DNA of 64,000 bases, from assembly GCA_026415435.1 (NCBI GenBank), contig JAOAHC010000020.1, forward strand, positions 15,940 to 79,939. The letters run 5' to 3'. The position numbers and the translations under genes were made by a program. The DNA comes from Clostridia bacterium (GTDB taxonomy: Bacteria > Bacillota > Clostridia > TANB77 > CAG-465). Each line of letters opens with the position of its first letter. Positions within the stretch are counted from its first letter, which is position 1. The notes below the pieces were generated by a model. That model was not told the DNA's origin, made no database searches, and was given only the letters and a program-made list of their open reading frames with translations. Shown here one piece after another: positions 5,237 through 45,355 of the stretch.

Positions 5237-5246
5237 TTTATTCTCC

Positions 5247-7277
5247 TTATATATTTTCTATTAACTTTAAAAATTCATCTAAAGATATAACTTTTACTCC
5301 TAAATCCTCTGCTTTTTTAAGTTTAGATCCTGCTGCTTCACCTGCAATTACCATGTCTGTTTTTTTAGATACAGAATTTGAAAATTTACCTGAATTAGTT
5401 TCAATTAATTTAACTATATCTTCTCTTGAATAATTATCAAATGAACCTGTTACAACAATACTCATAGAATCTAGTATATTAGATTTAACTTCTTTTTTAC
5501 TTGATTTTAAATTTACCCCTGCTTCTTGTAATTTTTCAATTATCTCTATAGTTTTAGGCTTTTTAAAAAATTCTACCACTGAAACAGCCATTATCTCACC
5601 AAAATCAGATAATTTTAATATATCTTCTACAGTTGCGTTTGAAATATCATATATATCGTTAAAGTTCTCGCTTAAAACTTGAGCCGATTTTTTCCCAATA
5701 TGTCTTATGCCTAGTCCAAATATTAGTCTTCCAAGTTCATTTTGTTTAGATTTTTCAATTGAATTAATTAAATTAGTAGCGGATTTTTTATCAAACCTGT
5801 CTAATTTTTCTATCATATCATACTCAATATAATAAATATCTGATATATCTTTTATATATCCAAGACTTATGAATCTGTCTACAATTGCTTCTCCAAAGCC
5901 AGTTATATCCATAGCATCACGAGAAACAAAATGTAAAATTGATCGATATATAAGAGCGGGACATTCGCTATTAGTACATCTAAGAGCTACCGTATTTTCA
6001 TCTTTTTCTAGCTCTTCACCACATACAGGACAATCAGTCGGAACATCAAACTCTCTTTCAATTCCGGTTCTTTTTGATGGTATTATCTCAGCTATTTCTG
6101 GTATAACATCACCAGCTTTTTGCACTATACATGTATCATTTATCTTTATGTCTTTTAACTTTAAATAATCAAAATTATGCAAAGTTGCCCTAGAAATAAG
6201 AGAACCTGCAACTCTAACCGGCTCTAATACCGCCATTGGAGTAACTTGCCCCGTTCTACCAACATTTACAATAATATCTAATATTTTAGTTTCTTTTTTT
6301 TCTGGTGGATATTTATATGCTACCGCCCATTTTGGTACTTTTGAAGTAGATCCAATCTCTTGTCTTAAATTTAAATCATTTATTTTTACTACAGCACCAT
6401 CAATATCAAAATCTAGATCTTCTCTAATTGTACCTATTCTCTTTATTTCTTCTAATACTTCAGTTACGCTTGTACAAACTTTACTATATGGTATAACATT
6501 TATACCTACATTTTTGCAATACACTAAACTTTCACTATGAGTATTAAAGGTTTTACTACTAGATTTTTGTACATTGAAAACATATATACTTAAATTTCTA
6601 GATTTCACTAGTTCGTTATTTAGTTGTCTTAACGTACCCGCAGCAGCATTTCTTGGATTAGCAAGTATAGCTTTACCTTCTTTTTCTAACTCACTATTAA
6701 TTCTTTCAAATTCTTTCCTCGGTAAATATACCTCACCGCGAACTTCAATAGTATCGCTAGTTTTTAATTCGTGCGGTATTGAAGCAATAACTTTCAAATT
6801 TTGTGTTACATCCTCTCCAATTACTCCATCACCTCTAGTTGAACCTACTTTAAGAATCCCATTTTCATATTCAAGAGAAACAGATAGTCCATCTACCTTG
6901 GTTTCAACTACGTATTCAAGATTTTGCCCATACTCTAAATTAAGCTTATTTACAAAATCCTCTACTTCCTCAAAACTAAACACATCCTGCAAACTCTGCA
7001 TAACAACATTATGTTTAACTTCCGAAAAAATATTTTTTATTCCAGACCCTACTTTTTGGGTAGGCGAAGTAGTCACTACATACTCAGGATGCAGTGACTC
7101 TAAATTTCTTAATTTTTGTGTTAATTTATCATACTCATAATCAGATATTTCAGGATCATCTAGCTGATGATATCTCATATTATGGTACTCTACTTGCTTT
7201 CTTAAATCTTCAATTTCTTTTTTTATATTTAAGTCAGCATTTCCAAAAAGGTCTATTTGTTCATTCTCATTATTCAT
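5247..7277 (-). CDS. ligA: NAD-dependent DNA ligase LigA
   Basis: 676 aa. Adenylation motif ETKVDGLSVSLEY, Zn-finger CPVCGEEL...C..SEC, an HhH region and a C-terminal BRCT (IVVTGSF...). Confidence 0.95.
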   Translation of the reverse strand: MNNENEQIDLFGNADLNIKKEIEDLRKQVEYHNMRYHQLDDPEISDYEYDKLTQKLRNLESLHPEYVVTTSPTQKVGSGIKNIFSEVKHNVVMQSLQDVFSFEEVEDFVNKLNLEYGQNLEYVVETKVDGLSVSLEYENGILKVGSTRGDGVIGEDVTQNLKVIASIPHELKTSDTIEVRGEVYLPRKEFERINSELEKEGKAILANPRNAAAGTLRQLNNELVKSRNLSIYVFNVQKSSSKTFNTHSESLVYCKNVGINVIPYSKVCTSVTEVLEEIKRIGTIREDLDFDIDGAVVKINDLNLRQEIGSTSKVPKWAVAYKYPPEKKETKILDIIVNVGRTGQVTPMAVLEPVRVAGSLISRATLHNFDYLKLKDIKINDTCIVQKAGDVIPEIAEIIPSKRTGIEREFDVPTDCPVCGEELEKDENTVALRCTNSECPALIYRSILHFVSRDAMDITGFGEAIVDRFISLGYIKDISDIYYIEYDMIEKLDRFDKKSATNLINSIEKSKQNELGRLIFGLGIRHIGKKSAQVLSENFNDIYDISNATVEDILKLSDFGEIMAVSVVEFFKKPKTIEIIEKLQEAGVNLKSSKKEVKSNILDSMSIVVTGSFDNYSREDIVKLIETNSGKFSNSVSKKTDMVIAGEAAGSKLKKAEDLGVKVISLDEFLKLIENI

Positions 7278-31020: not shown

Positions 31021-31698
31021 ATGATAAGAATAGGTATGTGCGATGATGAAATAATTACTATAAAATCTATTGCCAAAATAATTGAATCGAGAATAATAGA
31101 ATATGATTTTGATGCCGAGATTACAACTATAACTGACGATCAAGACAAAATATATGAATTAATAAAAAATAATGCTATAGACGTGCTAATATTAGATATT
31201 GACTTTGGAAATAACAAAAGAAATGGTCTAGAATTTGCCCACGAACTACGAAAAATCAATAAAGATTTTTATCTTGTTTTTTTATCTGCTCATCCGAGAT
31301 ATATGCATGTTTCCTTTGTTAATAAAACTTTTGACTATTTAGTCAAACCAATACATCCTAATGCAATTGCTGAGTTTGTATTTAGATTAAAAGAAGAATT
31401 TCAGCAAAATAAAAAGATGTTTTTACATGTAAACAAATCATTATCGATAAGAACTGATGATATTTTCTATATTGAAAAGCAAGGTAATAAAGCTTTAATA
31501 TATACCAGTACTACAATATACACAATGATAAATAATAGTCTTGATAGATTATTAGATATATTACCTAACAATTTTAGAAAATGCCACAGATCATACATTA
31601 TAAATGAAGAAAAAATACTTAGTATTGATAAAAAAAACGGCAATGTTTGCCTTGGGAAAGATGTATACTGCCCCATAAATATAAAGTATTTGATATAA
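31021..31698 (+). CDS. LytTR-family response regulator (AgrA-like)
   Basis: Receiver domain (IRIGMCDDE...LILDIDF...) plus a LytTR domain (DDIFYIEKQGNKALIYT...CHRSYIIN). Confidence 0.85.
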   Translation: MIRIGMCDDEIITIKSIAKIIESRIIEYDFDAEITTITDDQDKIYELIKNNAIDVLILDIDFGNNKRNGLEFAHELRKINKDFYLVFLSAHPRYMHVSFVNKTFDYLVKPIHPNAIAEFVFRLKEEFQQNKKMFLHVNKSLSIRTDDIFYIEKQGNKALIYTSTTIYTMINNSLDRLLDILPNNFRKCHRSYIINEEKILSIDKKNGNVCLGKDVYCPINIKYLI

Positions 31699-31734
31699 CT
31701 GCTATTTTAGTTAATTATTTTTAGGGGGATTTTT

Positions 31735-33048
31735 ATGTTAAATTTAGTTTTAAATGTTTTCAGTATACTTATCCAAGCATTGGCATGTGGATATTTTATT
31801 GAATCTATTACTCAAATTGGGACTATAAACAAATATGATAAAAATAAAAGATTGATAATTTATTTATCTTTGCTTTTACTGGTTTCTGTTAATAGATTTA
31901 TTGCATTCCCGTATAATACGATAATATCAATAGTATATCAATTTTTCCTTGTTAGCTTTATTTTAAAAGTTAAACCTATAAAATCATTATTCTTTTCAAT
32001 AATATTTTTTGTGGTTTTATCAATACTAGAAATTGTATGTGTATACCTTTTTATGATAATATTTAATCAAAATGGTGAGGAATTATTAAAATTGCCTGTA
32101 TACTACAATTTAGTAATTGTAATGCATAGTGTTTTACTTATGTTTATAACCTATCTGATAAATACTTTTGCAAACAAAAAGGAATTCTTCAAAAACTTTT
32201 TCATTGGAATTAACTTAAAGCAAATTAGATTTTTTCTAATTGTATCATCAATTTGTATAATACCACAAATAATTATATTTGCACTTAATAGATATAATTA
32301 TTCAATACCATTTCTAATACTTAACTCGATACAAATGATAATCTTTTGTTTATTAATATTTACATATATTAAAAGGTCTGCTGAATATGAAAAAACACAA
32401 AACGAATTAACAATATCGGAGTTACATAATAAAACAATGGTTAGCATGGTAGATGGTGTTAGAATACTAAAGCATGACTACAACAATATTATTCAAGCAA
32501 TGAGTGGATATGTTTCAACAAAACAATATGACAAACTTGAAGAACATATATCAAAAGTTTTAAAAGAGTGTAATGCAATAAATACTACATCAACAATAAC
32601 ACCAGAATTATTTAATGAACCTGCCATATATGGAATTGTTGGAGCTAAATATTTTATAGCTATTGAAAAAGAAATAACAGTGGATGTAAGTATAGGAATA
32701 AATATATCAGAGATTAATTTTCCAATGCCTGAGCTTTCTAGAATATTAGGTATATTACTCGATAATGCTATTGAAGCAACATGTAAGGTACCTAGCAAAC
32801 ATATAAAAATTGAGTTTAAATATGATCAAAGAAAAAATGCTGATGTAATCAAAATATATAATACATTTGATACTACAATTAAAATAGATTTAGAAAAAAT
32901 ATTTAATAAAGATTTTTCAACTAAAGAGATAAAGTCTGGAATAGGTTTATGGGAAGCAAAGAAATTGGTAAACAAAACTAAAAATGCTCAAATATATGCA
33001 ACTATTGAAAAAGATAAGTTTGTACAAAATATAATAGTTGAGAGATAG
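31735..33048 (+). CDS. AgrC-like GHKL sensor histidine kinase (6-7 TM sensor plus HATPase_c_5)
   Basis: Polytopic N-terminal half. H-box-like KHDYNN, N-box LLDNAIEA, and G-box SGIGLWEAK. Confidence 0.85.
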   Translation: MLNLVLNVFSILIQALACGYFIESITQIGTINKYDKNKRLIIYLSLLLLVSVNRFIAFPYNTIISIVYQFFLVSFILKVKPIKSLFFSIIFFVVLSILEIVCVYLFMIIFNQNGEELLKLPVYYNLVIVMHSVLLMFITYLINTFANKKEFFKNFFIGINLKQIRFFLIVSSICIIPQIIIFALNRYNYSIPFLILNSIQMIIFCLLIFTYIKRSAEYEKTQNELTISELHNKTMVSMVDGVRILKHDYNNIIQAMSGYVSTKQYDKLEEHISKVLKECNAINTTSTITPELFNEPAIYGIVGAKYFIAIEKEITVDVSIGINISEINFPMPELSRILGILLDNAIEATCKVPSKHIKIEFKYDQRKNADVIKIYNTFDTTIKIDLEKIFNKDFSTKEIKSGIGLWEAKKLVNKTKNAQIYATIEKDKFVQNIIVER

Positions 33049-33073
33049 TTGATTTAGAATAAATATAGAAATT

Positions 33074-33102
33074 AAAATGAGGTGTTTTTGACACCTCATT
33101 TT
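33074..33102. terminator. Bidirectional terminator shared by the convergent agrC-like and agrD genes
   Basis: AAAATGAGGTGT-TTTTG-ACACCTCATTTT lies between the stops at 33048 (+) and 33153 (-). Confidence 0.7.
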
Positions 33103-33152
33103 AGATTAATTTCAATTTATCAAAAATCAACTATTTTTTAATTAAAATAGGG

Positions 33153-33266
33153 CTATTTTTTTATCAAGCATCTTGGTGCTTTTGGTTGATGGAATAACAA
33201 TACGACGCAACTGTTAGTTGATGATCTTGCATATGATTCTACTATTTTTTTCAATAATTTTTTCAT
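33153..33266 (-). CDS. agrD: AgrD-type autoinducing-peptide precursor (37 aa)
   Basis: Too short for the ORF track. SD AAAGGGGGG lies 6 nt before the ATG. Translation: MKKLLKKIVESYARSSTNSCVVLLFHQPKAPRCLIKK. It has an amphipathic leader, a Cys followed by hydrophobic residues, then the HQP..P motif seen in clostridial AgrD. It is downstream of agrB on the same strand. Confidence 0.75.
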   Translation of the reverse strand: MKKLLKKIVESYARSSTNSCVVLLFHQPKAPRCLIKK

Positions 33267-33486
33267 ATAATTCCCCCCTTTTTATATGATATATATCTTC
33301 TAAATTTTTGTTTAATATAACTGTCTAAATATTACTTATACTATTTTGGTAAATATTTAACATTAAAATTATATTTCAAACTATTTCATGAACTTTAAAT
33401 AACATTATAATAACATGTAATTTAGAAGATTATATTTTTTATATATAAGAACAATTCCTAGGTTAATCATCCTTATTATAACTTTG

Positions 33487-34125
33487 TTAATTGCCTATAA
33501 GATCTTTAAATTCGTCTGATTCATAACTGTACTTACACCTTAAAAATCTATACACAGGCTTAGTAGTCATTATATTTATAAATAATAAAACATAAATTAT
33601 CATTTCTTTATATTCCATATTTTTTACAAATAAAATAAACACTAAATATATTAAGTTTATTGATATGAAAGCAAATATTTTTAGTTTCTTTCTTTGTTCT
33701 TTATTAATAATAGGTATTTCTTCAGTATCAGCAGGTGCTATTTTATAAATAACATATACCGATAATATATAATTTAAGATATATAGTATAACTAGTACAA
33801 TATTACTTATATAAGTTACTTTAGCAAGTAATATAGATCCTATCAGATATAGCGTTGAATATATGAAACATTCTATATTTGTTCTTGCATGTGCTCCTCC
33901 AACAAATGTTTTATATACTAAATTAATGAGAAACACCACACCAAGTTGAGGCAATATATTTAAAAAATATGCTATTATTATTATTGCTGTAAATTTAGGT
34001 ATATCTTCTACTATTCTCTTTACTCCAAATAAAAGAATTTCTCTTTTTTCTTCAGATACTTCTTCATCTTTTATAAGTACATTATCCAAAAAATAATTAC
34101 TTATTTTTTCAACCATATCTATCAC
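33487..34125 (-). CDS. agrB: AgrB-family accessory gene regulator (AIP-processing membrane peptidase)
   Basis: 212-aa polytopic protein. ...FGVKRIVEDIPKF...TFVGGAHART matches the AgrB pattern (G.H in the conserved region), and it is adjacent to agrD. Confidence 0.8.
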   Translation of the reverse strand: MIDMVEKISNYFLDNVLIKDEEVSEEKREILLFGVKRIVEDIPKFTAIIIIAYFLNILPQLGVVFLINLVYKTFVGGAHARTNIECFIYSTLYLIGSILLAKVTYISNIVLVILYILNYILSVYVIYKIAPADTEEIPIINKEQRKKLKIFAFISINLIYLVFILFVKNMEYKEMIIYVLLFINIMTTKPVYRFLRCKYSYESDEFKDLIGN

Positions 34126-34411: not shown

Positions 34412-34611
34412 ATGGAAAAAAACAATAATTATATGCAAACTGATAATAACTTAATACAAATATCAGATGGTGGCATTGTAGGAAAACCTATTGGAATTGG
34501 TGATAACGCACCTAAATTTAGTGCTCAAACTACATTCGGTATGATAAATTTAGATGATTACAGAGGAAAGTGGCTTATATTTTTCTCACATCCAGGTGGT
34601 TTTACACCTGT
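34412..34611 (+). pseudogene. 1-Cys (Prx6-type) peroxiredoxin, 5' fragment interrupted by an integrated element
   Basis: ...GDNAPKFSAQTTFGMINLDDYRGKWLIFFSHPGGFTPV, after which the frame reads into element DNA (GTLLLNLLVKSTVYPH*). The canonical continuation CTTEF is found at 40896 onward. Confidence 0.85.
34603..34611. repeat. attL core TACACCTGT (shared 9-mer at the element boundary)
   Basis: An identical 9-mer occurs at 40886..40894. Both lie in the prx reading frame (..ACA CCT GT.). Confidence 0.75.
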
Positions 34612-34635
34612 AGGAACGCTGCTGTTGAATTTATT

Positions 34636-34689
34636 AGTAAAAAGTACAGTTTATCCTCATTAATTTGAGTTTAAACTGTACTTTTTACT
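34636..34689 (-). terminator. Terminator closing the element's cargo operon (bidirectional hairpin)
   Basis: AGTAAAAAGTACAGTTTA ... TAAACTGTACTTTTTACT (18-bp arms), 16 nt downstream of the stop at 34705. Confidence 0.7.
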
Positions 34690-34704
34690 AATTAACATAT
34701 ACCT

Positions 34705-35175
34705 TTATATTCTGGTAACCTCTATTATAGTAATTTTGCAACCATTGAAATCAACAGTTTCATTAACTTTTTTACCAATAAGTACTTGCGGAATAGGTGC
34801 GTCACAAGATAATATATTGTTATCAATATCACCTTCTCCACTTCCAAGAATATCATATTCTACAATATCACCTTCAAAATTAATTTTTATTCTAGAACCC
34901 ATTATAACAGTTTCACCATCAAAATTGATATATTCAGGCATTTCTTCGATCACAATGCAATTATTGTATTTTTCCCATAGATCTTGCTTTTTCTTAGGTA
35001 ATTCGTACATCGATTTCACTCTTAATGCCATAAAATCAGGATTTTCTCTTAAATCATTATCCATCTTTACGCTTTCACCCATTTTTAAATTTGTTTTTGT
35101 TATCTCTTCATCAATATTTAAATATTCTTTATGTAGCTTTTCCTTACCATTTCTTGTTATATAATATTTCTTCAT
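34705..35175 (-). CDS. GreA/GreB-family transcript-cleavage factor paralogue (element-borne)
   Basis: YYITRNGKEKLHKEYLNI..., a coiled-coil tip motif D41-L-R-E44-N (GreA has D41/E44), and a C-terminal domain VIMGSRIKINFEGDIVEYDILGSGEGD...ILSCDAPIPQVLIGKKVNETV. Confidence 0.75.
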   Translation of the reverse strand: MKKYYITRNGKEKLHKEYLNIDEEITKTNLKMGESVKMDNDLRENPDFMALRVKSMYELPKKKQDLWEKYNNCIVIEEMPEYINFDGETVIMGSRIKINFEGDIVEYDILGSGEGDIDNNILSCDAPIPQVLIGKKVNETVDFNGCKITIIEVTRI

Positions 35176-35642
35176 ATTCCCTCCTTCTGTATATTACAAC
35201 TATTTTGCTCCTCCCTTAATATTGTTCTTGCCTTAACAAGTATTTTACCATAATTATTTTGACCTGTTTTATTAGGTCCACATCCCCAATATTCCTCTTT
35301 AACCGTATCCTCCACTATCTCCTCTTCTCCTGTATCTAATAATTTTTCTAGTATATTTGGATTAGCTCTGAATTTTAGCAAGACCCCTTCAAGCATTATT
35401 TCTTGTTTTACTTTATCCCAGTCTTCTCTTATTTTATTATTTCTATCTCTGCCAATATTAGAAGCTTCTTTAGGTGTTTCTGCATCAAGTATTTCTTGCT
35501 TAATTTCGCATTCGATAACTTTGCTATATTGATAAAAATGTTCATTTGTCTTAAAAAATATATCTTCCTTATAGAAACCATGAGATGAGTATGTAGCTAG
35601 ATATCCAAGTGGTCCAAACTCTTTATAAAAATGTATTGCCAT
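35172..35642 (-). CDS. NADAR (YbiA/DUF1768) family protein
   Basis: IHFYKEFGPLGYL...FKTNEHFYQYSK...EDWDKVKQEIMLEGVLLKFRANPNILEKLLDTGEEEIVE....EYWGCG.N.TGQNNYGKILVKAR matches the NADAR signature. Confidence 0.8.
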   Translation of the reverse strand: MAIHFYKEFGPLGYLATYSSHGFYKEDIFFKTNEHFYQYSKVIECEIKQEILDAETPKEASNIGRDRNNKIREDWDKVKQEIMLEGVLLKFRANPNILEKLLDTGEEEIVEDTVKEEYWGCGPNKTGQNNYGKILVKARTILREEQNSCNIQKEGI

Positions 35643-35644
35643 AG

Positions 35645-37306
35645 CTATTTTCTCCTTTGCCCTGGTATTAAATAGTCATATTTTAAATTTTCTGTATCAA
35701 GAGTCTCATTACCCTTACTCAAATTTATCTTTTTTCTGAACTCAACTTGCCCATTTTCAGCTGAAGTAGCTGAAAGATTAAGTTTTTCTATTACAATACT
35801 GTCCTCATAATCACAACTTAATCTCCATGCGTATCCTTCCATAGTCATTGTACTGTTATGTGACCCATAATTTCTTTCATGGTTTGGAGTTAATGGCTCA
35901 TTTTCCTTATATGTCAGTCCCTCAAACTCCTTTAGCGCCCTGCCAAGATTACATATTATACCTGTATCGATCGTAAAATCAGGATCAAAAAACAAACTTG
36001 CTGAATAACCTGATTCTTGCAAAGCATCCACATAAGAATCTATCATTGGCAATAATTCTAAATTAATATAGTTTGATTTTTCCTCATTATTTACTTTTAA
36101 ATAATTATCTGCATGCTTCCTGCACAATTCTAATACATTATACACATCTTCCCAAGTTGCTGAATCAAATTTATCTAAACTCCCAATTTTAAATAATCTT
36201 TTATATTCAAAAATTGCATTAAGGAAGAATCTCTCCGTTATTATATACCCTGGTCTTTCCCTTTGACTAGTTTTAGGATATACATTTATTCCATAATTCC
36301 CGTTTTCTGTAAGTCTTGGTCCTATTGAATAATATATTCCATCAGAATTGCAGAGCATATAAACTTCTGATAATTTGTATTTTGAAAGCCCCTTGAGTAT
36401 AAATTTATGAGCTATTCTTTGTACTTCCTCTTTATTTCTAGGACTTTCGTATAGACTTATCTCATAAAAATATATCGGTGTTTCTGTTAATTTTATTAAA
36501 TGATCATATGGATCAGCTATCTTTGATATATAAATATTAACACTTTTGTTTTTTGATATATACATATGATTATTAGCACATATAACTGTATGTTCTAGTA
36601 CATTAATATCATAAACTTCACAATTTTTTACTAAAGGTTTATATCTAAGTTCAACACACATCTGTCTACTACCACTACCATATCTATCATAATATGGCCT
36701 GTATAGTGATAAAAAATTAGCAATGTCTTTTGAATAATCATGTCTACTATATTGTGCGCTACCATCATTACACCAACCTTTTGCATAAGGAGTAAATGAT
36801 AATCTAACCCCTGCAAGAGTATCAATTAGAGTATTATTGATTTTTTTGTGCATATCATTTAATTCTTTATTATATCGACTGTATCCAACAGTTGAAATTC
36901 GTGTTTTTACTCCTAACTCATTATATACCAATGCTAAAAATTTATCAAGATAAAAGTAGTTTCCAATATCATTGTCAAGGTATGAAAATATAACACCATT
37001 TCTATGTTCATTTCTATCCCAAACAATAAGAGGAAATTCGAAGTTTCTTTTCAAAGTCTCATACTTTATGGCTGCAATTACATTTCTTTGTCTCTTTTCA
37101 GTCCAATATTCTGTCTTTGTACCAGCCAATTTACTGCATATCTTGCATGAATTTAAACATCCGATTTGTGGTTGAAAGTGCCTTACTTTTGAAAAAAAGC
37201 TATCCGGCAAACTTTCAAGCTCTGCCGCTATTTTCCGCCTCTCATTGTAATCTTCCTCACTTATACCTTGTTCTTCATCTGACAATAAATATTCAAAATA
37301 TAACAT
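35645..37306 (-). CDS. 553-aa protein with an N-terminal CX3CX2C motif (divergent radical-SAM-like) and a ~300-aa C-terminal region of unknown function
   Basis: QIGC50LNSC54KIC57S, followed by segments with radical-SAM-like strand patterns (GVIFSYLDND, TRISTVGYS, GVRLSFTPY). The canonical GGE motif is absent and nothing is recognised in the C-terminal half. Confidence 0.45.
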   Translation of the reverse strand: MLYFEYLLSDEEQGISEEDYNERRKIAAELESLPDSFFSKVRHFQPQIGCLNSCKICSKLAGTKTEYWTEKRQRNVIAAIKYETLKRNFEFPLIVWDRNEHRNGVIFSYLDNDIGNYFYLDKFLALVYNELGVKTRISTVGYSRYNKELNDMHKKINNTLIDTLAGVRLSFTPYAKGWCNDGSAQYSRHDYSKDIANFLSLYRPYYDRYGSGSRQMCVELRYKPLVKNCEVYDINVLEHTVICANNHMYISKNKSVNIYISKIADPYDHLIKLTETPIYFYEISLYESPRNKEEVQRIAHKFILKGLSKYKLSEVYMLCNSDGIYYSIGPRLTENGNYGINVYPKTSQRERPGYIITERFFLNAIFEYKRLFKIGSLDKFDSATWEDVYNVLELCRKHADNYLKVNNEEKSNYINLELLPMIDSYVDALQESGYSASLFFDPDFTIDTGIICNLGRALKEFEGLTYKENEPLTPNHERNYGSHNSTMTMEGYAWRLSCDYEDSIVIEKLNLSATSAENGQVEFRKKINLSKGNETLDTENLKYDYLIPGQRRK

Positions 37307-37310
37307 GATG

Positions 37311-37877
37311 CTACCCCCCTGATAAATTAAAGTATAATTCTCTTATATTTTCATCAATATCCGTTTCATTATTATTAAAATAAATAACATTTTCTAATAA
37401 AGCACCAAACTCTTGTAAAAATTTGTTTTTAGTATCAGTATCATCTAATACCTTATCCAATATTGATTTACCTCTTTCGGTGATTCTAGATTGTCTTAAT
37501 TCCTCCTCCACAGATACAAAAATTGTAAGATCCGGTTTTAAAATTTCATGCCCCATTATATTGTAATCTAAATTTACATTTAGTCCCGCGACTCTGTGTG
37601 AAACAACAGTATCTATTAAATACCTTACACAATATACATTATTATTTTTATAATCAAAATTATTTTTTATATAATCTGACATGTATACCACTGAAGACAA
37701 ATAATATAAATAATGGGCCATTTGCGAACATTTTCTAACATCTTTATCGATTAAATCCCGACTAGAATATTCTAAACTAGGTGTTTTTACTAATATTGAG
37801 TTTTCATCCATTTTGTGTAACTTCTCTGCTATTGTACTTGTTCCCGATCCATCCAATCCTGTTATAACAGTAAGCAT
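37311..37877 (-). CDS. Thymidylate/dNMP-kinase-like P-loop protein with a non-canonical Walker A (GLDGSGTST)
   Basis: MLTVITGLDGSGTSTIAEKL..., PDLTIFVSVEEELRQSRITERG (a Tmk-like strand plus lid Arg). Start set at the ATG at 37877, preceded by AAAGGAGGAGA (the track lists an upstream start at 37931). Confidence 0.6.
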   Translation of the reverse strand: MLTVITGLDGSGTSTIAEKLHKMDENSILVKTPSLEYSSRDLIDKDVRKCSQMAHYLYYLSSVVYMSDYIKNNFDYKNNNVYCVRYLIDTVVSHRVAGLNVNLDYNIMGHEILKPDLTIFVSVEEELRQSRITERGKSILDKVLDDTDTKNKFLQEFGALLENVIYFNNNETDIDENIRELYFNLSGG

Positions 37878-37990
37878 ACAGCTCTCCTCCTTTTTAAATT
37901 TAAATAAGATAATCAACAACATGATGTACATTATATACTGATTTCTTTGCGATATTTGTCGAATTATAAATTTGTGTGTAAAATAATAAC

Positions 37991-39574
37991 TTAAGAATTA
38001 ATTATTTTGTCAATATTTATCCTAAGATGAACCTCTATACTTTTATCCTTATAAACATATATTTTATCTACTAATAAAATTAACAAATATCTGTCTATTT
38101 CTCCTCTATCTATTATGCTATTTAATATATCTAATACTGTTTTTTTTGAATCATTTGCTACTTTAACATTGTTTTTCTTAATGTTTAGTATGTTATTTTC
38201 TATATTAATTAAATTTTGTTTTTTATTCATTTCTAACTCTTCATATACATTTTCAATTAATTGTTTTTCTTGTATTAATTTTTGCTTTGATAAATCTTTT
38301 ATTTTTTGATTAATTAAAATTTTAAGTTCATTCTTTAAAAGATTTTTTCTTTTAATTAAATCTAATATATATTTGTCTTCATTATTTGTTTTTTCATCAA
38401 TTATTAAAATATTACTTAAAATATCAATATAATGTTGTTTAAAAACTTTAATAAATTCAACTAATTGTATTTTTATATAGTTTTCATGTATTTCTCCGCA
38501 AGAACATCTTGAAGATCCATATTTTATATAGTTAATACATGAATACCCTACTATTTTTATATTTTTAGCTCTTTTTATTTTTCTCCCTGACATACAAGAT
38601 CCACATTCCCCACATCGTATTAATCCACTAAATAAATATTCTGTTTTATTCTTATTATCATTATATATTTTTTTATTTTTACTATCTCTTAACTTTTTAG
38701 CTAACAAAAAATCATCTATAGATATAATTTGTTCATGGTGATTTTCAAATCTATAATTTTGCTCTTTTGGAAGTAGCTTTGAACGTCCTCTTATTGATTG
38801 AACTGCTTTTTTATGAGTAATTAAAGTACCAGTATATATTTCATTATCTATTATTTGTTTTATCATATATGTACACCATGTTGGTTGTATTTTATGTTTA
38901 TATATTTTTCCTTCTTGTTCAAATTTTTGGCTATAATATAAAGATGGAGTCGGATAACCTTTTTCATTTAACATTTTACAAATTTGAACGTATCCAAATC
39001 CTTCCTTAATGTACAATTCAAATATGTACTTTATTATATGTTTTACTTCATCATCAACAATAAGTTTAGTTTTATCTTTTGGATCCTTAATATATCCAAA
39101 ATATTTTCCCATTATGAGCCTACCAGATTTTTGTCTACTATGCATACTTGATTTGACTTTACGTGATATGTCCTTTACATACTTTTCATTGTACCAAGTA
39201 GTTATACCTATAGTATCATTTTGATCTGCTTGAAGATTGTATATTCCACCCGAATCATGTAAAACTATTAGATTTTTCCCACTTTCTTTTAAATCATCTA
39301 GAAATACTAGAGTTCTGCCGTTATTTCTTCCTACTCTTGACATGTCCTTAACAACAATTGTATCTACTAATCCAGTTTCAATATCTTCTAACATTTCATT
39401 CCATGCCGGTCTATCAAACTTATACCCTGAAACATTGTCATCAATGTAAAATTTTCTTACATTTAAATTCTGAGAATTAGCATATTCTAATATCATATTT
39501 TTTTGCTCTTCTATGCTAGAAAAATTATCTAAATTATCATCTCTGCTTAATCTACAATAACCTACCAAATTCAT
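37991..39574 (-). CDS. Large serine recombinase (resolvase domain, recombinase domain, zinc ribbon, coiled coil)
   Basis: MNLVGYCRLSRDD (catalytic Ser), DDNVSGYKFDRPAW, VVKDMSRVGRN, Zn ribbon CGECGSCM...YSCINY...SRCSC, and a Lys/Glu-rich coiled coil. Confidence 0.9.
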   Translation of the reverse strand: MNLVGYCRLSRDDNLDNFSSIEEQKNMILEYANSQNLNVRKFYIDDNVSGYKFDRPAWNEMLEDIETGLVDTIVVKDMSRVGRNNGRTLVFLDDLKESGKNLIVLHDSGGIYNLQADQNDTIGITTWYNEKYVKDISRKVKSSMHSRQKSGRLIMGKYFGYIKDPKDKTKLIVDDEVKHIIKYIFELYIKEGFGYVQICKMLNEKGYPTPSLYYSQKFEQEGKIYKHKIQPTWCTYMIKQIIDNEIYTGTLITHKKAVQSIRGRSKLLPKEQNYRFENHHEQIISIDDFLLAKKLRDSKNKKIYNDNKNKTEYLFSGLIRCGECGSCMSGRKIKRAKNIKIVGYSCINYIKYGSSRCSCGEIHENYIKIQLVEFIKVFKQHYIDILSNILIIDEKTNNEDKYILDLIKRKNLLKNELKILINQKIKDLSKQKLIQEKQLIENVYEELEMNKKQNLINIENNILNIKKNNVKVANDSKKTVLDILNSIIDRGEIDRYLLILLVDKIYVYKDKSIEVHLRINIDKIINS

Positions 39575-39774: not shown

Positions 39775-39884
39775 AAGTTAAATCACCTAATAAATAACTA
39801 TGATATAATTAAGTTTTTATACATGTTTAAGGAACCCAATATATATTCACTCTACAGATATATGAAATGGGATATAACCGTATA

Positions 39885-39927
39885 AAAAAGATTATATTAT
39901 AAATAATTTTTAATATAATCTTTTTTT
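39885..39927 (-). terminator. Terminator between the 275-aa gene and the recombinase operon
   Basis: AAAAAAGATTATATTA ... TAATATAATCTTTTTT, flanked by A/T runs. Confidence 0.6.
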
Positions 39928-39968: not shown

Positions 39969-40796
39969 CTAAAATAAATTTACAATAAATTTTACAACAA
40001 CATCTCCTATAATTCCCCAAAATAAAATACCCATGAACGGTAATATAATAAATTTCACCCACCATTTATTGGTAAACATTTCTAGAAATCCATATGGGGT
40101 AAATCCGTATAAATCTTTCCAATTGGAATTTGTTTTTAAAGTATTCTCGTGTGCCCTTTCAATTATATTTGCAATACAATCTACTTTTCTCAAAGTAGAC
40201 CTATGTAACTTAATATATTCGTGATTTTCAAAAGCATCCGCTTCCTCCTGCCCATTAAGAAAATCTTTATTACTTATATTATTTTTCTTTATTAGACTTT
40301 CAAATCTAGGATGGTTTATATAGTTCACACCATATTTTGCTATTAGAATACGTGCTAAATCTATTTTATTTTCATCTTCAAGTGTATATATTTCATAATC
40401 TATCCTTTTACCTCTATTTAAAACTCTATATCTGAATAGTATTGCATCAAATCCATAATGTACATCTCTCATGTTCAAATGTATCCATATATACTTTCTA
40501 TTCTTTTTTAAAAATTCTAAGAATTCTTGTAACATTTCTCTTTCAAGTTCATCATAGTGATTTATTATTTCCTCAAGTTTTATTCCTTTCAATTCAGCCT
40601 GCATGTGTATTGAAAAAGATTTTGTTTGACCAGTTTTCAAAAAACGCACAGCTATACATGTTATTCTTGAAGATTTACTACCCATATCTTTATAGAAGCT
40701 CTCACATGAATAGTGAATTATCAAATACTTATCCTCATTTTGAAATATCTCCTCTAAAACTTTAATTGTATTCTTATGTTTTTTTAATCTCTTCAT
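39969..40796 (-). CDS. Hypothetical 275-aa protein with a C-terminal TM anchor (element-borne)
   Basis: C-terminal WWVKFIILPFMGILFWGIIGDVVVKFIVNLF. The N-terminal domain has faint DnaQ-like spacing (IIHYSCESF ... WIHLNMRDVHYGFDAI), not enough for a call. Confidence 0.45.
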   Translation of the reverse strand: MKRLKKHKNTIKVLEEIFQNEDKYLIIHYSCESFYKDMGSKSSRITCIAVRFLKTGQTKSFSIHMQAELKGIKLEEIINHYDELEREMLQEFLEFLKKNRKYIWIHLNMRDVHYGFDAILFRYRVLNRGKRIDYEIYTLEDENKIDLARILIAKYGVNYINHPRFESLIKKNNISNKDFLNGQEEADAFENHEYIKLHRSTLRKVDCIANIIERAHENTLKTNSNWKDLYGFTPYGFLEMFTNKWWVKFIILPFMGILFWGIIGDVVVKFIVNLF

Positions 40797-40885: not shown

Positions 40886-40894
40886 TACACCTGT
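40886..40894. repeat. attR core TACACCTGT
   Basis: Identical to 34603..34611 and followed by TTGCACTACTGAATTT (C-T-T-E-F). Confidence 0.75.
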
Positions 40895-41492
40895 TTGCAC
40901 TACTGAATTTATTTCTTTTGCTAAATATTATCCTGAATTTATGAGAAGAAATACATATTTACTAGGTCTATCTGTAGATAGCATACCTTCAAATCTTGCT
41001 TGGGTATACAATATATACAGAAATACTGGTATTCAAATACCTTTCCCTATAATTTCGGATAGAGATATGAAAGTTTCTAAAGCATTTTCAATGATTTCAG
41101 ATAACTCTGATAATTTTCACAATATAAGAAATGTATATATAATTGATCCTAATCAAAAAATTAGAGCTATATTGCAGTACCCCCCAACAACTGGAAGAAA
41201 TATAGCAGAAATTTTGAGAATTTTAGAGGCTTTACAATTAACTGATCAAGATAATGTAGCTACACCTGCAAACTGGTTACCAGGGCAACCTGTAATTTTA
41301 CCTTATCCTCAAACATACGACGAATTAATTGAAAGAGCTAAAAATCCTGCAGGATATAACTGTGTTGATTGGTATTTATGTTTTAAACAAGAACTCCCAA
41401 CTCAAAAAAACATGGTAAATATACCAAACTTTCCGCAAGTAGAATGTACAAATGCATATTCTTTTAATCAACCTGTTAATATGATGGTATAA
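40887..41492 (+). pseudogene. 1-Cys peroxiredoxin, 3' fragment (from ..TPVCTTEF onward)
   Basis: The frame is open from ACA CCT GTT TGC ACT ACT GAA: TPVCTTEFISFAKYYPEFMRRNTYLLGLSVDS...AWVYNI...IPFPIISDRDMKV...RNVYIIDPNQKIRAIL.YP.TTGRNI.EILRIL.ALQ...ATPANW.PG. It is in frame with the 5' fragment once 34612..40894 is removed. Confidence 0.85.
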
Positions 41493-41777: not shown

Positions 41778-44700
41778 TTATTCAAATAGATTCATGATAT
41801 CCTCTTTAGATAATTTATTAATAAATGTTTCTTCTGTGCTTAACATATTTTCTGTAAGTTTAGACTTTTTCTCTTGAAGTTCATTTATTTTTTCTTCAAT
41901 GGAATCTTTTGTTATTAATTTATATACTTGCACATTATTTTTTTGACCGATTCTGTAAGCTCTATCTGTAGCTTGATTTTCAGCAGATAAATTCCACCAT
42001 GGGTCATAATGAATAACCACATCAGCTCCAGTAAGATTTAGCCCAGTTCCACCAGCTTTAAGAGAAATCAAAAATACATCTATATTTTCATTTGTATTAA
42101 AGTCGTTTACTAGCTGCATCCTCTCCTGCACTTTCGTACTTCCAGTAAGCTTATAATAATTTATTTTTTCCTTTTTGAACTCTTTTTCTAGTATTTCAAA
42201 CATTGAAGTAAACTGTGAAAATAACAAGACTTTATGACCGCTTTCTGTTGCATCTTTTACTATTTCAATACATTGATTTAATTTGCTACTCTTTCCATTA
42301 TAATTATCAATAAATAGAGATGGATGACAGCATATTTGTCTAAGCCTAGTAAGTATAGCAAGTATTTTAATTTGACTCTTTTCAAACCCATTACTATTTA
42401 TTTCATCTTGCAGATCCTGTTTTGCCTTCATAAGATGTGAAAAATATATTCTTTTTTGTTCATCATCCATTTCATTATTTAATATAGTTATTGTTTTATC
42501 TGGCAATTCAGTTAAAACTTCTTTTTTCAATCTTCTTAATATAAATGGTTGTATCAGGGTCTTTAATCTGTCTAATTTTTCACCATCTTCTTCCTTTACT
42601 ATTGGCATTTCATAATTTGATTTGAACTTTGAATAGTTGAAAAGATATCGTGGCATAACATAATCAAAGATTGACCATAACTCTGAAAGAGAGTTTTCTA
42701 TCGGTGTACCTGTTAAAGCAAATCTTGTTTGAGCGTTTATACTTTTTAGTGCTATAGCATTTTGAGTACTACTATTTTTTATATATTGGGCTTCATCAGC
42801 AATTATATATTTAAATATATAATTTTTTTCTTTATATATGTCAATATCTCTTTTTAGTAAATCATATGAAGTCACAATTAAATCATACTTATCAATTAAA
42901 TCTATTTTTTGCTTTCTTTCCTCTAATTTTCCATTTATAACTAACGTGGATATATTTGAGCTAAACTTTTTAATTTCGTTTTCCCAATTAAGAGTAAGTG
43001 AGCTTGGACATACAACTATACTAGTCTTTTTATCTTCTTTTGAATTATTAACATAATCTGATATAATTGCAATAATTTGAAGTGTTTTTCCAAGTCCCAT
43101 ATCATCTGCAAGTATGCCTCCAAAATTATATTCATCTATTATTTTTAACCATTTATATCCTATTTTCTGATAATTTCTTAAAACATTTTCAAACTCAGTT
43201 GGTAAGATTATTTTTTCATCAAATTCTCTATCAAGAGTCTTATTTATAATATTTTTATAATTATAATTTCTTGTTATTTGAGTATTCTTAATATTATCCA
43301 ACAACTTTTCTAAATATATGCTTCTATATATAGGAACATTTATTTCTCCAGATGATAATTCTTTGTAATCTAAATCCATACCATCAACTAGATTATCTAT
43401 GAAAGCTATGTCAGAATTTTCTTCAAGTTTTAAGAAACTTCCATCCTTTAACCTATGATATTTTTTCTTTATATTATACTTTTTTAGTATATCTTTTAAT
43501 TCTGATCTATCAAAATCAAAGCCACTAAGTTCAATATTTAATAAGTTGTTTTCAATTTTTACACCTATATTACCAAGCTTTGCCTGTCTAATTTGCTTTG
43601 ACTTAAATTCATCTGAAACCATAACTTGATATTTATTTGTATACTCATTTACCCCTGAATTTAAAAAATCATATATTTTATCATCATCTTTTAAAACAAG
43701 TATGTTCTTTTGTTTATCTTGTTCAAATCCAGTCTTACTAAATGTCACATACGCTCTTTTTTCTTGAACTATATTTCTTACTATTGTTAACTCCTCAGAT
43801 TTTTCATATGGATTAAACTCTATTTCTCCATAACAAAATTTTATATTTGCTTCTATATTATGTTTTGAGTTATAATCTAAATATATTTTTACAAATAAAT
43901 CTTGAGGTATATATTTTTCAATTTCTGTATTCTTAAATTCATCTAAATTAATGTTATTTTTTATTTTTGGAACCACTAAAGAAAATAGTGATGAAAGATC
44001 ATCTTTTCTAAATGTTATTTCATTAGTTTGATTCTGACTGTATATGTCTAATATTTTTATAGTATTTTTTGAAAAACCTTCACTACATCTGTATAAATTA
44101 TTATCAACGAATAGATATGCATGGTAATCTGTTTTATACATCTCATACTTAATAGGAGTTTCATTAATTAAACCGTATTCTGTTTCATTTAATTTCTTTA
44201 TATTAAATTTTATCTCGGGTTCCCCGTCTAAAAATGTGTAGTCTTGAGTATAGTGGTATCTTTCAATTTTAACATTACTATTTACTAAAATATTAAATAA
44301 TTCATCAAAAGATATTGAATCTAACTTTATACTTGAAACTCCAAGAACTTTTTGTTGAGATCCATAATAATTATATCTGACAGTTGTATTATCATTAGCA
44401 TATTTAATAATTTTAGAATATTTTAATATAAATCTCACTAATTCTTGAGATGATTCATCAAAACTACCCATATTATGAATAAATTCTAGCTTTGATCCAT
44501 ACTTATATACTTTATTTTTTTCAACATTGTCCATAAATTCAACTAGATCTTTTATTTTATATTGTTGCTTTAATCCTACGCTAAATTCAACTTTTACTTT
44601 ATCCTCAAATCTATCAAAAATTAATTGAGGTACTACTTTTACGTTACCATTTTTAATTTCAGTATATTCATTTATTATATCTACGTTATCTTCTGAATCT

Positions 44701-45128
44701 ATATCATTAAACAAATTTAGAATTCTCAAGCTATCTTGATATTTTCTTTCCATATATATCTTGTTTAAGTCTTCGCTTGAAGTATTATTACTATTTTTTT
44801 GTGGTATTAACATGCGTTTTGCATACTCTTTATTTTCATTAAATTCTATTATAGTTGCTACTATATGTTTACAATAATAGTAATTTGTATCATAATATGG
44901 GCATGCACATTTAAAGTCTTCTATTTTGCCTTCTTCTACTAATACCAAAATATTATATGATGAGGTACTGCCCTTTACTCTAGAATATAGCTTAAAATTT
45001 AAATCATCTTTATATTCTATTTTATATATATTGACTCTTCCTTGATTAACATATGTACGTGCTCTTGATAATAAAGATAGATCCATATTATCTTCTAAAA
45101 ATTTAATTATACTATCATTAACTAACAT
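41778..45128 (-). CDS. SNF2-family helicase with an N-terminal SWIM zinc finger (YwqA/RapA-like)
   Basis: SWIM motif CACPYYDTNYYYCKHIV. SNF2 motifs LADDMGLGKT, DEAQYIKN, LTGTPIEN and QATDRAYRIGQ. I prefer the ATG at 45128 (AAGGTGG RBS) to the track's TTG at 45212. Confidence 0.85.
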   Translation of the reverse strand: MLVNDSIIKFLEDNMDLSLLSRARTYVNQGRVNIYKIEYKDDLNFKLYSRVKGSTSSYNILVLVEEGKIEDFKCACPYYDTNYYYCKHIVATIIEFNENKEYAKRMLIPQKNSNNTSSEDLNKIYMERKYQDSLRILNLFNDIDSEDNVDIINEYTEIKNGNVKVVPQLIFDRFEDKVKVEFSVGLKQQYKIKDLVEFMDNVEKNKVYKYGSKLEFIHNMGSFDESSQELVRFILKYSKIIKYANDNTTVRYNYYGSQQKVLGVSSIKLDSISFDELFNILVNSNVKIERYHYTQDYTFLDGEPEIKFNIKKLNETEYGLINETPIKYEMYKTDYHAYLFVDNNLYRCSEGFSKNTIKILDIYSQNQTNEITFRKDDLSSLFSLVVPKIKNNINLDEFKNTEIEKYIPQDLFVKIYLDYNSKHNIEANIKFCYGEIEFNPYEKSEELTIVRNIVQEKRAYVTFSKTGFEQDKQKNILVLKDDDKIYDFLNSGVNEYTNKYQVMVSDEFKSKQIRQAKLGNIGVKIENNLLNIELSGFDFDRSELKDILKKYNIKKKYHRLKDGSFLKLEENSDIAFIDNLVDGMDLDYKELSSGEINVPIYRSIYLEKLLDNIKNTQITRNYNYKNIINKTLDREFDEKIILPTEFENVLRNYQKIGYKWLKIIDEYNFGGILADDMGLGKTLQIIAIISDYVNNSKEDKKTSIVVCPSSLTLNWENEIKKFSSNISTLVINGKLEERKQKIDLIDKYDLIVTSYDLLKRDIDIYKEKNYIFKYIIADEAQYIKNSSTQNAIALKSINAQTRFALTGTPIENSLSELWSIFDYVMPRYLFNYSKFKSNYEMPIVKEEDGEKLDRLKTLIQPFILRRLKKEVLTELPDKTITILNNEMDDEQKRIYFSHLMKAKQDLQDEINSNGFEKSQIKILAILTRLRQICCHPSLFIDNYNGKSSKLNQCIEIVKDATESGHKVLLFSQFTSMFEILEKEFKKEKINYYKLTGSTKVQERMQLVNDFNTNENIDVFLISLKAGGTGLNLTGADVVIHYDPWWNLSAENQATDRAYRIGQKNNVQVYKLITKDSIEEKINELQEKKSKLTENMLSTEETFINKLSKEDIMNLFE

Positions 45129-45355
45129 ATTCGCCACCTTAAAAAACATATTACAATATAATTGGCAACACATTTTAATTTTAATTATATCATTTTTCTT
45201 TGAATATTTCAATTAAAATTTTCATTTTTTTATTATTTAGTAAATAATTGACAAAAGGTATTTTTATATACAAAATATACTTTATTTTTAAAATGTAATT
45301 TTTTAATATATTATTTTATTAGTAATTGATGTAAAATATTTGTGAAGTGAATTTC

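Follow-up and report, generated by a model that had tools for sequence, protein, structure and literature searches.

A conserved, previously undescribed gene module of a radical-SAM-like protein and a YbiA-type NADAR protein, with Tmk-like and Gre-family partners, on a serine-recombinase island

The four-gene operon

The DNA considered here (the window) is a stretch of 64,000 nucleotides (nt) from a Clostridia bacterium, corresponding to positions 15,940-79,939 of contig JAOAHC010000020.1, and all window coordinates are given as positions within it. On its minus strand, positions 34705-37877 hold a compact operon of four genes, named g1 to g4 in reading order. They encode a Tmk-like P-loop protein, a protein of 553 amino acids (aa) that resembles radical S-adenosylmethionine (radical-SAM) enzymes, a NADAR protein of the YbiA type, and a paralogue of GreA (Table 1). 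An earlier note on this DNA, made from the letters alone, had singled out these genes as a candidate undescribed system on a mobile element. The module is real, conserved and previously undescribed, and its core consists of the radical-SAM-like family and the YbiA-type NADAR protein.

The tight packing claimed for the four minus-strand open reading frames (ORFs) is borne out by the ORF listing and by direct reading of the sequence. A gap of 4 nt separates g1 from g2 (TAG-catc-ATG, 37311/37306) and a gap of 2 nt separates g2 from g3 (TAG-ct-ATG, 35645/35642), while g3 and g4 overlap in an ATGA (35175/35172). The Shine-Dalgarno sequence AAAGGAGGAGA was found in front of the first gene as the earlier note had it. 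The start of g1 at 37877 is favoured over a longer ORF from 37931 because the homologues of g1 begin at the Met equivalent to this ATG. The terminator that had been proposed after g4 stands only in part: a hairpin does follow the stop codon, but its arms are 30 nt long and not 18 bp, and the consensus terminator scan made no call at it. This hairpin could be a putative terminator and/or a recombination-site feature, the latter because it is placed at the extreme end of the island described below. No convincing sigma-70-like promoter was detected directly upstream of g1 in the promoter scan; therefore, the operon may be read through or co-transcribed from the neighbouring recombinase gene. No riboswitch or other RNA family was detected by Rfam within 30-46 kb.

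Conservation and architecture of the module

A word-indexed search returned 429 homologues of g2, and the family was located in 65 species-level genomes. These belong to Clostridia, Lachnospiraceae, Bacilli/Mollicutes-like metagenome-assembled genomes, Erysipelotrichaceae, Veillonella, Selenomonadaceae, one Saccharibacterium and Lonepinella; the carriers in culture are Veillonella tobetsuensis ATCC BAA-2400 and Lonepinella sp. MS14434. The quartet recurs across them, with all four genes in the same order in 22 of the 65 loci; the kinase-like gene accompanies g2 in 33 loci and the Gre paralogue in 30. Moreover, the parts are joined by protein fusions, namely NADAR::Gre in five loci (e.g. Veillonella tobetsuensis ATCC BAA-2400), g2::NADAR in three, and NADAR::DHH in 22. 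Among the 429 homologues are also Tmk::g2 (P0076), g2::NADAR (P0080 and others) and the triple fusion g2::NADAR::GreA_C (P0099), and distant members include NADAR::g2 (P0126, P0165, P0129) and g2::NUDIX (P0161). With a constant gene order in 22 genomes and fusions linking all four proteins, the quartet can be regarded as one functional unit, as had been proposed. Of these partners, it is NADAR rather than the kinase that g2 hardly ever lacks: the two are adjacent or fused in 61 of the 65 loci, and fused in both orders, which suggests consecutive catalysis rather than the clean-up of a side product.

The loci differ in what surrounds this core. In type A, the order kinase-g2-NADAR-Gre is often followed by a CYTH-like protein of about 197 aa (9/17 members match PF01928; PDB 1YEM, 1.4e-4). 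In type B, the order is LysR-g2-NADAR::DHH. Roughly half of the loci have neither Gre nor kinase but the LysR regulator and the NADAR::DHH fusion; a LysR regulator lies directly upstream in 32 loci. Intermediate loci carry an inserted class I/II aminotransferase (6/65). Judged by its PDB relatives, the DHH partner comes nearest to the inorganic pyrophosphatases of family II. A role for it as an NrnA-like nanoRNase degrading Gre products was rejected, since these relatives are Mn-dependent pyrophosphatases of family II and not NrnA, GdpP or RecJ. The Saccharibacteria and Lonepinella loci keep kinase and Gre without NADAR, and the loci with g2 and no NADAR include L059 and L060. In a scan with one clade of divergent g2 members from metagenome contigs (35 to 70% guanine-plus-cytosine (GC) content in the loci cited), the neighbours were a dNK kinase, an AAA_17 kinase with a SpoU methylase, ATP-grasp, PhyH with an acyltransferase, and GNAT/FemAB.

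Some individual loci deserve mention. In L060 (Lonepinella sp. MS14434), a 321-aa protein with no Pfam match (4992-5957) lies directly upstream of g2, in the slot that is occupied by the kinase or LysR in other loci. In L085 (2333-6320), from a widespread metagenomic lineage, kinase-g2-NADAR-Gre stands directly upstream of a canonical greA with both Pfam domains. In L088 (800-6420), where the ribosomal-protein cluster ends with secY, the module comes next, in the usual place of adenylate kinase, and closes with a stand-alone DHH protein that is closest to family II pyrophosphatases.

The radical-SAM-like protein

The g2 protein is matched by nothing in Pfam or PADLOC (none at E<=1 in either), NCBIfam or PHROGs, and a PDB profile search with the alignment of its family gave nothing at E<=10. 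The family is small, as an exhaustive HMMER search of 1.84 billion representatives retrieved 207 proteins, all of this family. The motif C50-x3-C54-x2-C57 lies in an invariant GC[LF]NxCx[IF]CS in 20 close homologues and in all 65 loci. Furthermore, of 49 diverse members of the family with 21-47% identity, 48 have CX3CX2C, typically as GCxNxCxFCSQ. The Pfam family Radical_SAM (PF04055) is weakly matched by 25 of these 49 (best 1.1e-4), and no other Pfam family by more than one of them. The support from PF04055 thus appears to be transitive, coming through family members and not from a direct match of g2.

Structure prediction leans the same way. The AlphaFold2 model of g2 has a predicted local distance difference test (pLDDT) score of 91.2, and strands and helices alternate over residues 41-222. 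Foldseek searches of this model against PDB and BFVD gave no match below E 0.07. Among the ten top BFVD matches, all above that value, seven are radical-SAM or Fe-S oxidoreductases aligned over about 190-230 columns with probabilities of 0.16-0.72 (0.54-0.72 for the best four). The PDB matches of highest probability, likewise none with E<0.07, are the radical-SAM proteins AprD4, BtrN and viperin-like enzymes, which would include sugar- and nucleotide-modifying enzymes; similarity to the viperin-like structures is weak (E about 0.5 to 0.8, template modelling (TM) score 0.2-0.35). Taken together, the cysteine motif, the PF04055 matches and the Foldseek results agree with the earlier description of g2 as radical-SAM-like, and Pfam, NCBIfam, PDB and Foldseek searches assign it to no characterised metabolic family. 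It is therefore read as a predicted divergent branch of the radical-SAM superfamily that may found an undescribed family of its own.

In the model, the N-terminal region of about 220 aa would form a partial barrel carrying C50, C54 and C57, and the C-terminal region of about 330 aa appears to be integrated with the barrel and to match no known fold; the earlier note likewise had a region of about 300 aa that it could not place. When its 318 C-terminal residues (35645-36601) were modelled alone, the pLDDT was 62 versus about 91 in the full-length context, and the region evidently packs on the barrel and is not an independent domain. The loss of confidence is strongest across a segment bearing the invariant motifs FTIDTGIICNLGRA and NEPLTPxHERNYG, which probably lines the active site of the modelled barrel. 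An auxiliary Fe-S cluster formed by C217, C452 and C498 was considered and dropped, as C452 and C498 are not conserved in the wider family. Residues of g2 that are conserved include D111, D113, S143, H153, R168, D194, E219, R221, N320, Y325, R349, D447 and N453. Profile hidden Markov models of the N- and C-terminal parts found nothing among 775 ORFs of the loci and the window. A search of plasmids for the g2 family yielded only one fragment, on a Streptomyces globosus plasmid (L066, 7980-9133): a 172-aa 'hypothetical protein', with a NUDIX gene after it, whose match to g2 is confined to residues 413-497 (42% identity). This protein may be either a remnant or the C-terminal motif sub-domain in stand-alone form.

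The partner proteins

The NADAR assignment of g3 is secure, with matches to Pfam NADAR PF08719 (1.5e-30; 107 bits against a cut-off of 35.1), to TIGR02464 (108.5 bits, over the cut-off of 73.7) and to Escherichia coli YbiA 2B3W (2.8e-19). The protein is of the compact, small-molecule YbiA type and begins at the YbiA core, thus having no DarG1-type N-terminal DNA-binding extension, which marks DarT1-associated NADARs (PMC11543638). It also matches PDC-M42C and DS32_2 weakly, the latter under the cut-off, and no DarT-like gene is present in the operon. NADAR is the antitoxin of DarTG1 and YbiA a damage-control N-glycosidase, and the linkages known so far to be NADAR substrates join ribosyl to an exocyclic amine and are not N9 purine glycosides (PMC11543638).

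Likewise, g4 belongs to the GreA family and keeps the D41-x-x-E44 tip that had been pointed out. It matches the C-terminal domain GreA_GreB (PF01272, 1.3e-12) and, weakly, the N-terminal domain PF03449 (0.048), and can be aligned with E. coli GreA 1GRJ along its whole length (residues 6-141). D41 and E44 are kept in 31/31 aligned homologues, and the tip DNDLRENPEF is conserved at at least 95% in these 31 and kept in the NADAR::Gre fusions. The protein falls under all NCBIfam GreA/GreB cut-offs (best TIGR01462, 61.8 bits versus a cut-off of 139). These scores, together with the canonical greA that adjoins the Gre of the system in L085, indicate a paralogue and not the housekeeping GreA. The search with g4 gave 54 close homologues, many of them on contigs equal in length to those carrying g2 homologues. 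Three further ones checked singly all lie in g2 clusters, one beside canonical greA, one directly after secY and one beside a NACHT/pentapeptide protein. As the close homologues examined are all in g2 clusters, this Gre clade is considered to be dedicated to the module.

The first protein, g1, is a degenerate Tmk-like kinase, in line with the earlier reading. It matches Thymidylate_kin PF02223 (1.3e-12; 48 bits against a cut-off of 27) and yeast Tmk 1TMK (6e-5), and falls under the cut-off of the NCBIfam dTMP-kinase family TIGR00041 (43.7 < 83.25). The fold family is thus that of deoxynucleoside monophosphate kinases, without the Walker A GxxGxGK[ST] and DR[YH] that characterise them: Walker A reads GLDGSGTST, with the P-loop Lys replaced by Thr, and the alignment to 1TMK shows, besides this K-to-T change, a D-to-V change that turns DRY into VRY. 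The Thr is kept in at least 95% of 33 homologues. Since the catalytic Lys is missing, g1 may not supply substrate.

The serine-recombinase island

The operon is the main cargo of a 6.3-kb serine-recombinase island, the location that the earlier note had given for it. The island also contains a large serine recombinase with Resolvase, Recombinase and Zn_ribbon_recom domains, a 67-aa ORF and a 275-aa phage-family protein. It interrupts a 1-Cys peroxiredoxin gene inside the codons of the active-site motif FTPVCTTE, and both of its ends bear the same core, TACACCTGT. Joining the two TACACCTGT junctions regenerates GGFTPVCTTEF, the peroxidatic-Cys motif; excision at this core would give back an intact peroxiredoxin gene. 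The GC content of the island is 27% and that of its flanks 26%.

The 275-aa protein has a full-length match to phrog_8766 (1.3e-76), a hydrophobic C-terminus and no Pfam match. Its gene is missing from all 65 g2 loci and shows no linkage to the module elsewhere. The best promoter-like site of the region precedes it, and an inverted repeat with 21-nt arms (95% complementary, 1-nt loop) lies between it and the 67-aa ORF upstream of the recombinase; this repeat may serve as a terminator, a regulatory site or a recombination site. Spo0A, YqfD and an Agr locus lie nearby, and the host is an endospore former of low GC content. The Agr-type quorum-sensing locus stands immediately to the left of the island, and a SNF2-family helicase gene follows the split peroxiredoxin gene on the right. 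Kinship of this 1144-aa ORF with an Mfd-like one of the same length (1802-5236) was rejected; the two are unrelated and their equal length is coincidental.

Table 1. Features of the operon, the island and its flanks (positions in the window)
Feature	Position	Strand	Description
g1	37311..37877	-	Tmk-like P-loop protein, 188 aa from the ATG after AAAGGAGGAGA
g2	35645..37306	-	553 aa, divergent radical-SAM-like
g3	35172..35642	-	compact YbiA-type NADAR, 156 aa
g4	34705..35175	-	GreA-family paralogue, 156 aa, D41/E44 tip intact
Shine-Dalgarno AAAGGAGGAGA	37883..37893	-	read from the sequence; 5 nt 5' of the g1 ATG at 37877
AT-rich hairpin	34630..34695		30-nt arms, 90% complementary, 6-nt loop; just 3' of the g4 stop
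Large serine recombinase	37991..39574	-	Resolvase + Recombinase + Zn_ribbon_recom domains
Left crossover core TACACCTGT	34603..34611		island boundary inside the split peroxiredoxin gene
Right crossover core TACACCTGT	40886..40894		island boundary
Peroxiredoxin, N-terminal part	34412-34663 (ORF)	+	AhpC/TSA
Peroxiredoxin, C-terminal part	~40887-41492	+	includes 1-cysPrx_C domain
275-aa cargo protein	39969..40796	-	phrog_8766
Inverted repeat	39884-39926		between the 275-aa gene and the 67-aa ORF
Promoter-like site	40847-40819		precedes the 275-aa gene
Agr-type locus	31021-34125		LytTR response regulator, GHKL histidine kinase, AgrB
SNF2-family helicase	41778-45212	-	SWIM zinc finger, SNF2_assoc domain, 1144 aa

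Neighbourhood and links to defence

The 99 neighbours of type-A loci include three serine recombinases, two relaxases and two each of Mokosh-like, DRT-like and UvrD/GajB-like proteins, mixed with ordinary housekeeping genes. In PADLOC-DB v2.0.0, no system was matched, and neither g2 nor g4 had a match. The best profile for g1 is PDC-M51B (3.8e-23), a defence-candidate gene, followed by VakA (4e-14); these and the PDC-M42C match of g3 are parts of different candidate systems. Full-text literature searches found no paper combining these components and none linking 3'-deoxy-3',4'-didehydro-CTP (ddhCTP) with Gre factors. The earlier statement that no described system has this gene combination thus agrees with both the PADLOC run and the literature. 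In L082 (1-8541), the 846-aa triple fusion P0099 adjoins two dynamin-like GTPase genes, a pairing that recalls dynamin-type defence loci.

Proposed function and rival explanations

Judged from gene content and conserved residues, the most likely function of the module is nucleotide-analogue chemistry coupled to the rescue of RNA polymerase (RNAP). A nucleotide or nucleotide-derived small molecule is suggested as the substrate because the partners include the Tmk-like g1, dNK and AAA_17 kinases, CYTH, pyrophosphatase-like DHH, NUDIX and the YbiA-type NADAR. The Gre paralogue would tie this chemistry to the secondary channel of RNAP, and the link is supported by the conserved tip, by the fusions of NADAR::Gre and radical-SAM::NADAR::Gre, and by a Gre clade found only in these clusters. 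Additionally, a defence flavour is lent by the clean island ends, the recombinases and relaxases, the Mokosh-, DRT-, dynamin- and NACHT-like neighbours and the PDC-M51B match, and the aminotransferase, ATP-grasp, PhyH and GNAT genes of some loci fit the tailoring of an analogue. The reading preferred here is that the module makes a nucleotide analogue that blocks RNA 3' ends, that cleavage stimulated by Gre protects RNAP, and that NADAR and the phosphohydrolases control the pool; it is put forward tentatively, with a probability of roughly 0.36. Less likely than not, though with a real chance, the module constitutes a new class of nucleotide-based immunity or antagonism, in which g2 would make the RNA-3'-blocking nucleotide, a dedicated and sometimes enzyme-fused Gre docked in the secondary channel would protect RNAP, and NADAR would control the pool. 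The model of the earlier note, a viperin-like pair of kinase and radical-SAM enzyme with rescue by Gre and detoxification by NADAR, is a plausible hypothesis and near to the preferred reading.

In the preferred reading, g2 would use a radical derived from SAM at a [4Fe-4S] cluster to alter a sugar, either that of a nucleotide or that of a small molecule derived from one. As a specificity subunit, g1 would bind the nucleotide or work as an atypical kinase. NADAR would take a consecutive step on the same molecule and break a bond between ribosyl and nitrogen. What results, as product or intermediate, would be a nucleotide analogue whose incorporation blocks RNA 3' ends. The Gre factor of the module would enter the secondary channel of the multisubunit RNAP of the host and stimulate cleavage of the blocked 3' end, so that host transcription would survive, whereas polymerases unable to use Gre, for instance the single-subunit RNAPs of phages, would not survive. 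In sister loci, phosphoanhydride hydrolases (CYTH, DHH, NUDIX) would join NADAR in holding the self-toxic pool low. The net role would be that of an accessory and horizontally mobile antiviral or antagonistic module, viperin-like in logic, with protection of RNAP added.

Several observations weigh against the preferred reading. NADAR is obligate while roughly half of the loci do without Gre and kinase, and an ever-present N-glycosidase would destroy a nucleotide terminator unless it were tightly controlled. The kinase lacks the P-loop Lys and the DRY Asp, which makes a CMPK2-like supply of substrate doubtful. The LysR regulator upstream in 32 loci is typical of inducible catabolic or detoxification operons, and some loci have core chromosomal settings, beside greA or after secY. 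Furthermore, the enrichment of defence genes among the 99 neighbouring proteins is only modest, and the g2 family was not found in INPHARED phage genomes or IMG/VR, a neutral result that nonetheless gives no signal of an arms race.

The strongest rival, though unlikely in itself, is sanitation or resistance. Here the module would dismantle a non-canonical nucleotide that poisons RNAP, either an exogenous nucleoside-analogue antibiotic of the gut or an endogenous damaged nucleoside triphosphate (NTP): hydrolases would strip the phosphates, NADAR would cut the ribosyl-nitrogen bond, g2 would perform a radical step on the remnant, and the Gre paralogue would proofread transcripts already containing the analogue. 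Beyond g2, the kinase-like protein and Gre, nearly all recurrent enzymes do hydrolyse nucleotide bonds, the aminotransferase being the exception. The LysR regulator and the core-genome contexts point the same way, as do a degenerate kinase that suits a binder rather than an activator and the position of the module as the sole cargo operon of a small serine-recombinase element, which is typical of resistance genes. YbiA is itself a damage-control enzyme (PMC11543638), and GreA is a known transcription fidelity factor (PMC6027873). However, there is little precedent for detoxification built around a universally conserved radical-SAM enzyme, no gene for transport or efflux shows consistent linkage, and ATP-grasp, PhyH, GNAT/FemAB and aminotransferase genes give the clusters of distant members a biosynthetic look. 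The biosynthetic neighbours of distant members also speak for radical adenosylation, an improbable alternative in which g2 would add a 5'-deoxyadenosyl radical to an acceptor or yield inhibitory 5'-deoxyadenosine, NADAR would remove the base, and a small metabolite or cofactor would result, with Gre and the kinase-like protein as regulatory add-ons. Parallels are found in MqnE, followed by the nucleosidase MqnB, and in HpnH, followed by the nucleosidase HpnG and the aminotransferase HpnO. The near-universal coupling of radical-SAM protein and N-glycosidase, fused in both orders, would suit such a route, and the aminotransferase inserted in six loci parallels HpnO. Known NADAR substrates do not, as they are not N9 purine glycosides, and the conserved catalytic tip of Gre, the Gre-enzyme fusions and the CYTH, NUDIX and pyrophosphatase-like partners would be left unexplained.

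These phosphohydrolases, acting on nucleotides, point to small molecules and thereby also count against a toxin-antitoxin-like or abortive-infection system, which is improbable as well. Modelled on DarTG1 or DS-32, such a system would have g2 as a toxin that, upon infection, radically modifies nucleic acid or an essential pool of nucleotides, NADAR as the antitoxin that reverses or removes the modification, and Gre as relief for RNAP stalled at lesions. It would profit from the antitoxin role of NADAR in DarTG1 (PMC11543638) and its presence in the validated DS-32, from the weak matches of g3 to DS32_2 and PDC-M42C, and from the mobile-island location. On the other hand, g3 is of the YbiA type without the DarG1 DNA-binding extension, covalent toxin::antitoxin fusions in both orders would be unusual, and L059 and L060 have g2 without NADAR. 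Finally, the possibility that unrelated genes came to lie side by side on a mobile element by chance is effectively refuted by the constant order, which is seen in 22 of the 65 genomes and extends over Clostridia, Negativicutes, Bacilli and other groups, by the Rosetta-stone fusions linking all four proteins, and by the restriction of the Gre clade to g2 clusters.

Significance

The module would define a new family of radical-SAM enzymes and probably a new nucleotide transformation; its carriers are common Firmicutes of gut and rumen, Veillonella, Saccharibacteria and Pasteurellaceae. Its Gre protein would be the first Gre paralogue hard-wired, and even fused, to an enzyme pathway, implying chemistry at or against the secondary channel of RNAP. 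If the module is a producer, it could provide a new chain terminator of nucleotide nature with antiviral or antibacterial action, much as viperin provided ddhCTP; if it is a new class of immunity or antagonism, a transcript-cleavage factor would for the first time be an immunity component of a small-molecule weapon. If the module is a sanitiser, it would represent a new protection of transcription from nucleotide analogues, which matters for nucleoside drugs in the gut. In either case, NADAR would have a role beyond DarTG and riboflavin damage control.

Comparison with known systems

As a mobile element, the island resembles the Tn4451/Tn5397-type elements of Clostridia in having one large serine recombinase, a short core and a small cargo operon inserted within a gene; it differs in its cargo, which is the module and the phrog_8766 gene and not a known resistance gene. 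DarTG1 and DS-32, the latter a validated system of NADAR and a phosphoribosyltransferase (DefensePredictor paper), are likewise accessory or defence modules that pair a NADAR hydrolase with a nucleotide- or nucleic-acid-modifying enzyme. Here, however, the partner is radical-SAM-like and not an ADP-ribosyltransferase or phosphoribosyltransferase, and g3 passes TIGR02464, stays below the DS32_2 cut-off and lacks the DarG1 N-terminal extension. Ophion, which combines radical-SAM, PHP and phosphoribosyltransferase proteins, is a different and unrelated system.

Among the secondary-channel factors GreA/GreB, Gfh1, Rnk and DksA, g4 resembles E. coli GreA in its full-length alignment and in its tip, DLRENPDF where GreA has DLKENAEY. 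Unlike GreA/GreB, it scores below the family cut-offs, is encoded within and sometimes fused to an enzyme operon, and co-exists with canonical greA. To our knowledge, no described Gre paralogue is dedicated to a metabolic or defence operon. For TPR-GreA/B-PIN conflict systems, the mentions found are computational only (PMC9503650).

Among small-molecule pathways, the module shares with MqnE/MqnB and HpnH/HpnG/HpnO the coupling of a radical-SAM enzyme, here a predicted one, to an N-glycosidase, with an optional aminotransferase. These are the radical-SAM plus nucleosidase pathways of futalosine and of hopanoid side chains, respectively; their nucleosidases are of the MTAN/PNP type, unlike NADAR, and they are not known to have a Gre, kinase, CYTH, NUDIX or DHH protein. 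The early pathway of puromycin and 3'-amino-3'-deoxyadenosine comprises Pur10, the aminotransferase Pur4 and the NUDIX protein Pur7, which removes the RNAP-inhibiting 3'-amino-3'-dATP. It offers a parallel to the proposed logic in a sugar-modified NTP that poisons RNAP, in self-protection by NUDIX or phosphohydrolase, and in tailoring by an aminotransferase. In contrast, its oxidising enzyme is NAD-dependent, it is not known to have NADAR or Gre, and an aminotransferase is present in only 6 of the 65 loci of the module.

A further comparison is with prokaryotic viperins and with vertebrate viperin plus CMPK2, where a radical-SAM gene, like the radical-SAM-like g2, lies beside a gene of a nucleotide-kinase family in an accessory mobile context, and the weak structural resemblance of g2 to viperin-like enzymes adds to it. 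Membership of g2 among the viperins (pVip) was rejected, as PADLOC gave no pVip match and HMMER found only its own family; g2 is not a viperin homologue and, at 553 aa, carries the integrated extension of about 330 aa. We know of no viperin system that includes either NADAR or a Gre paralogue. The module thus stands apart from viperins by its kinase-like partner without the P-loop Lys, its obligate NADAR and the presence of a Gre paralogue.

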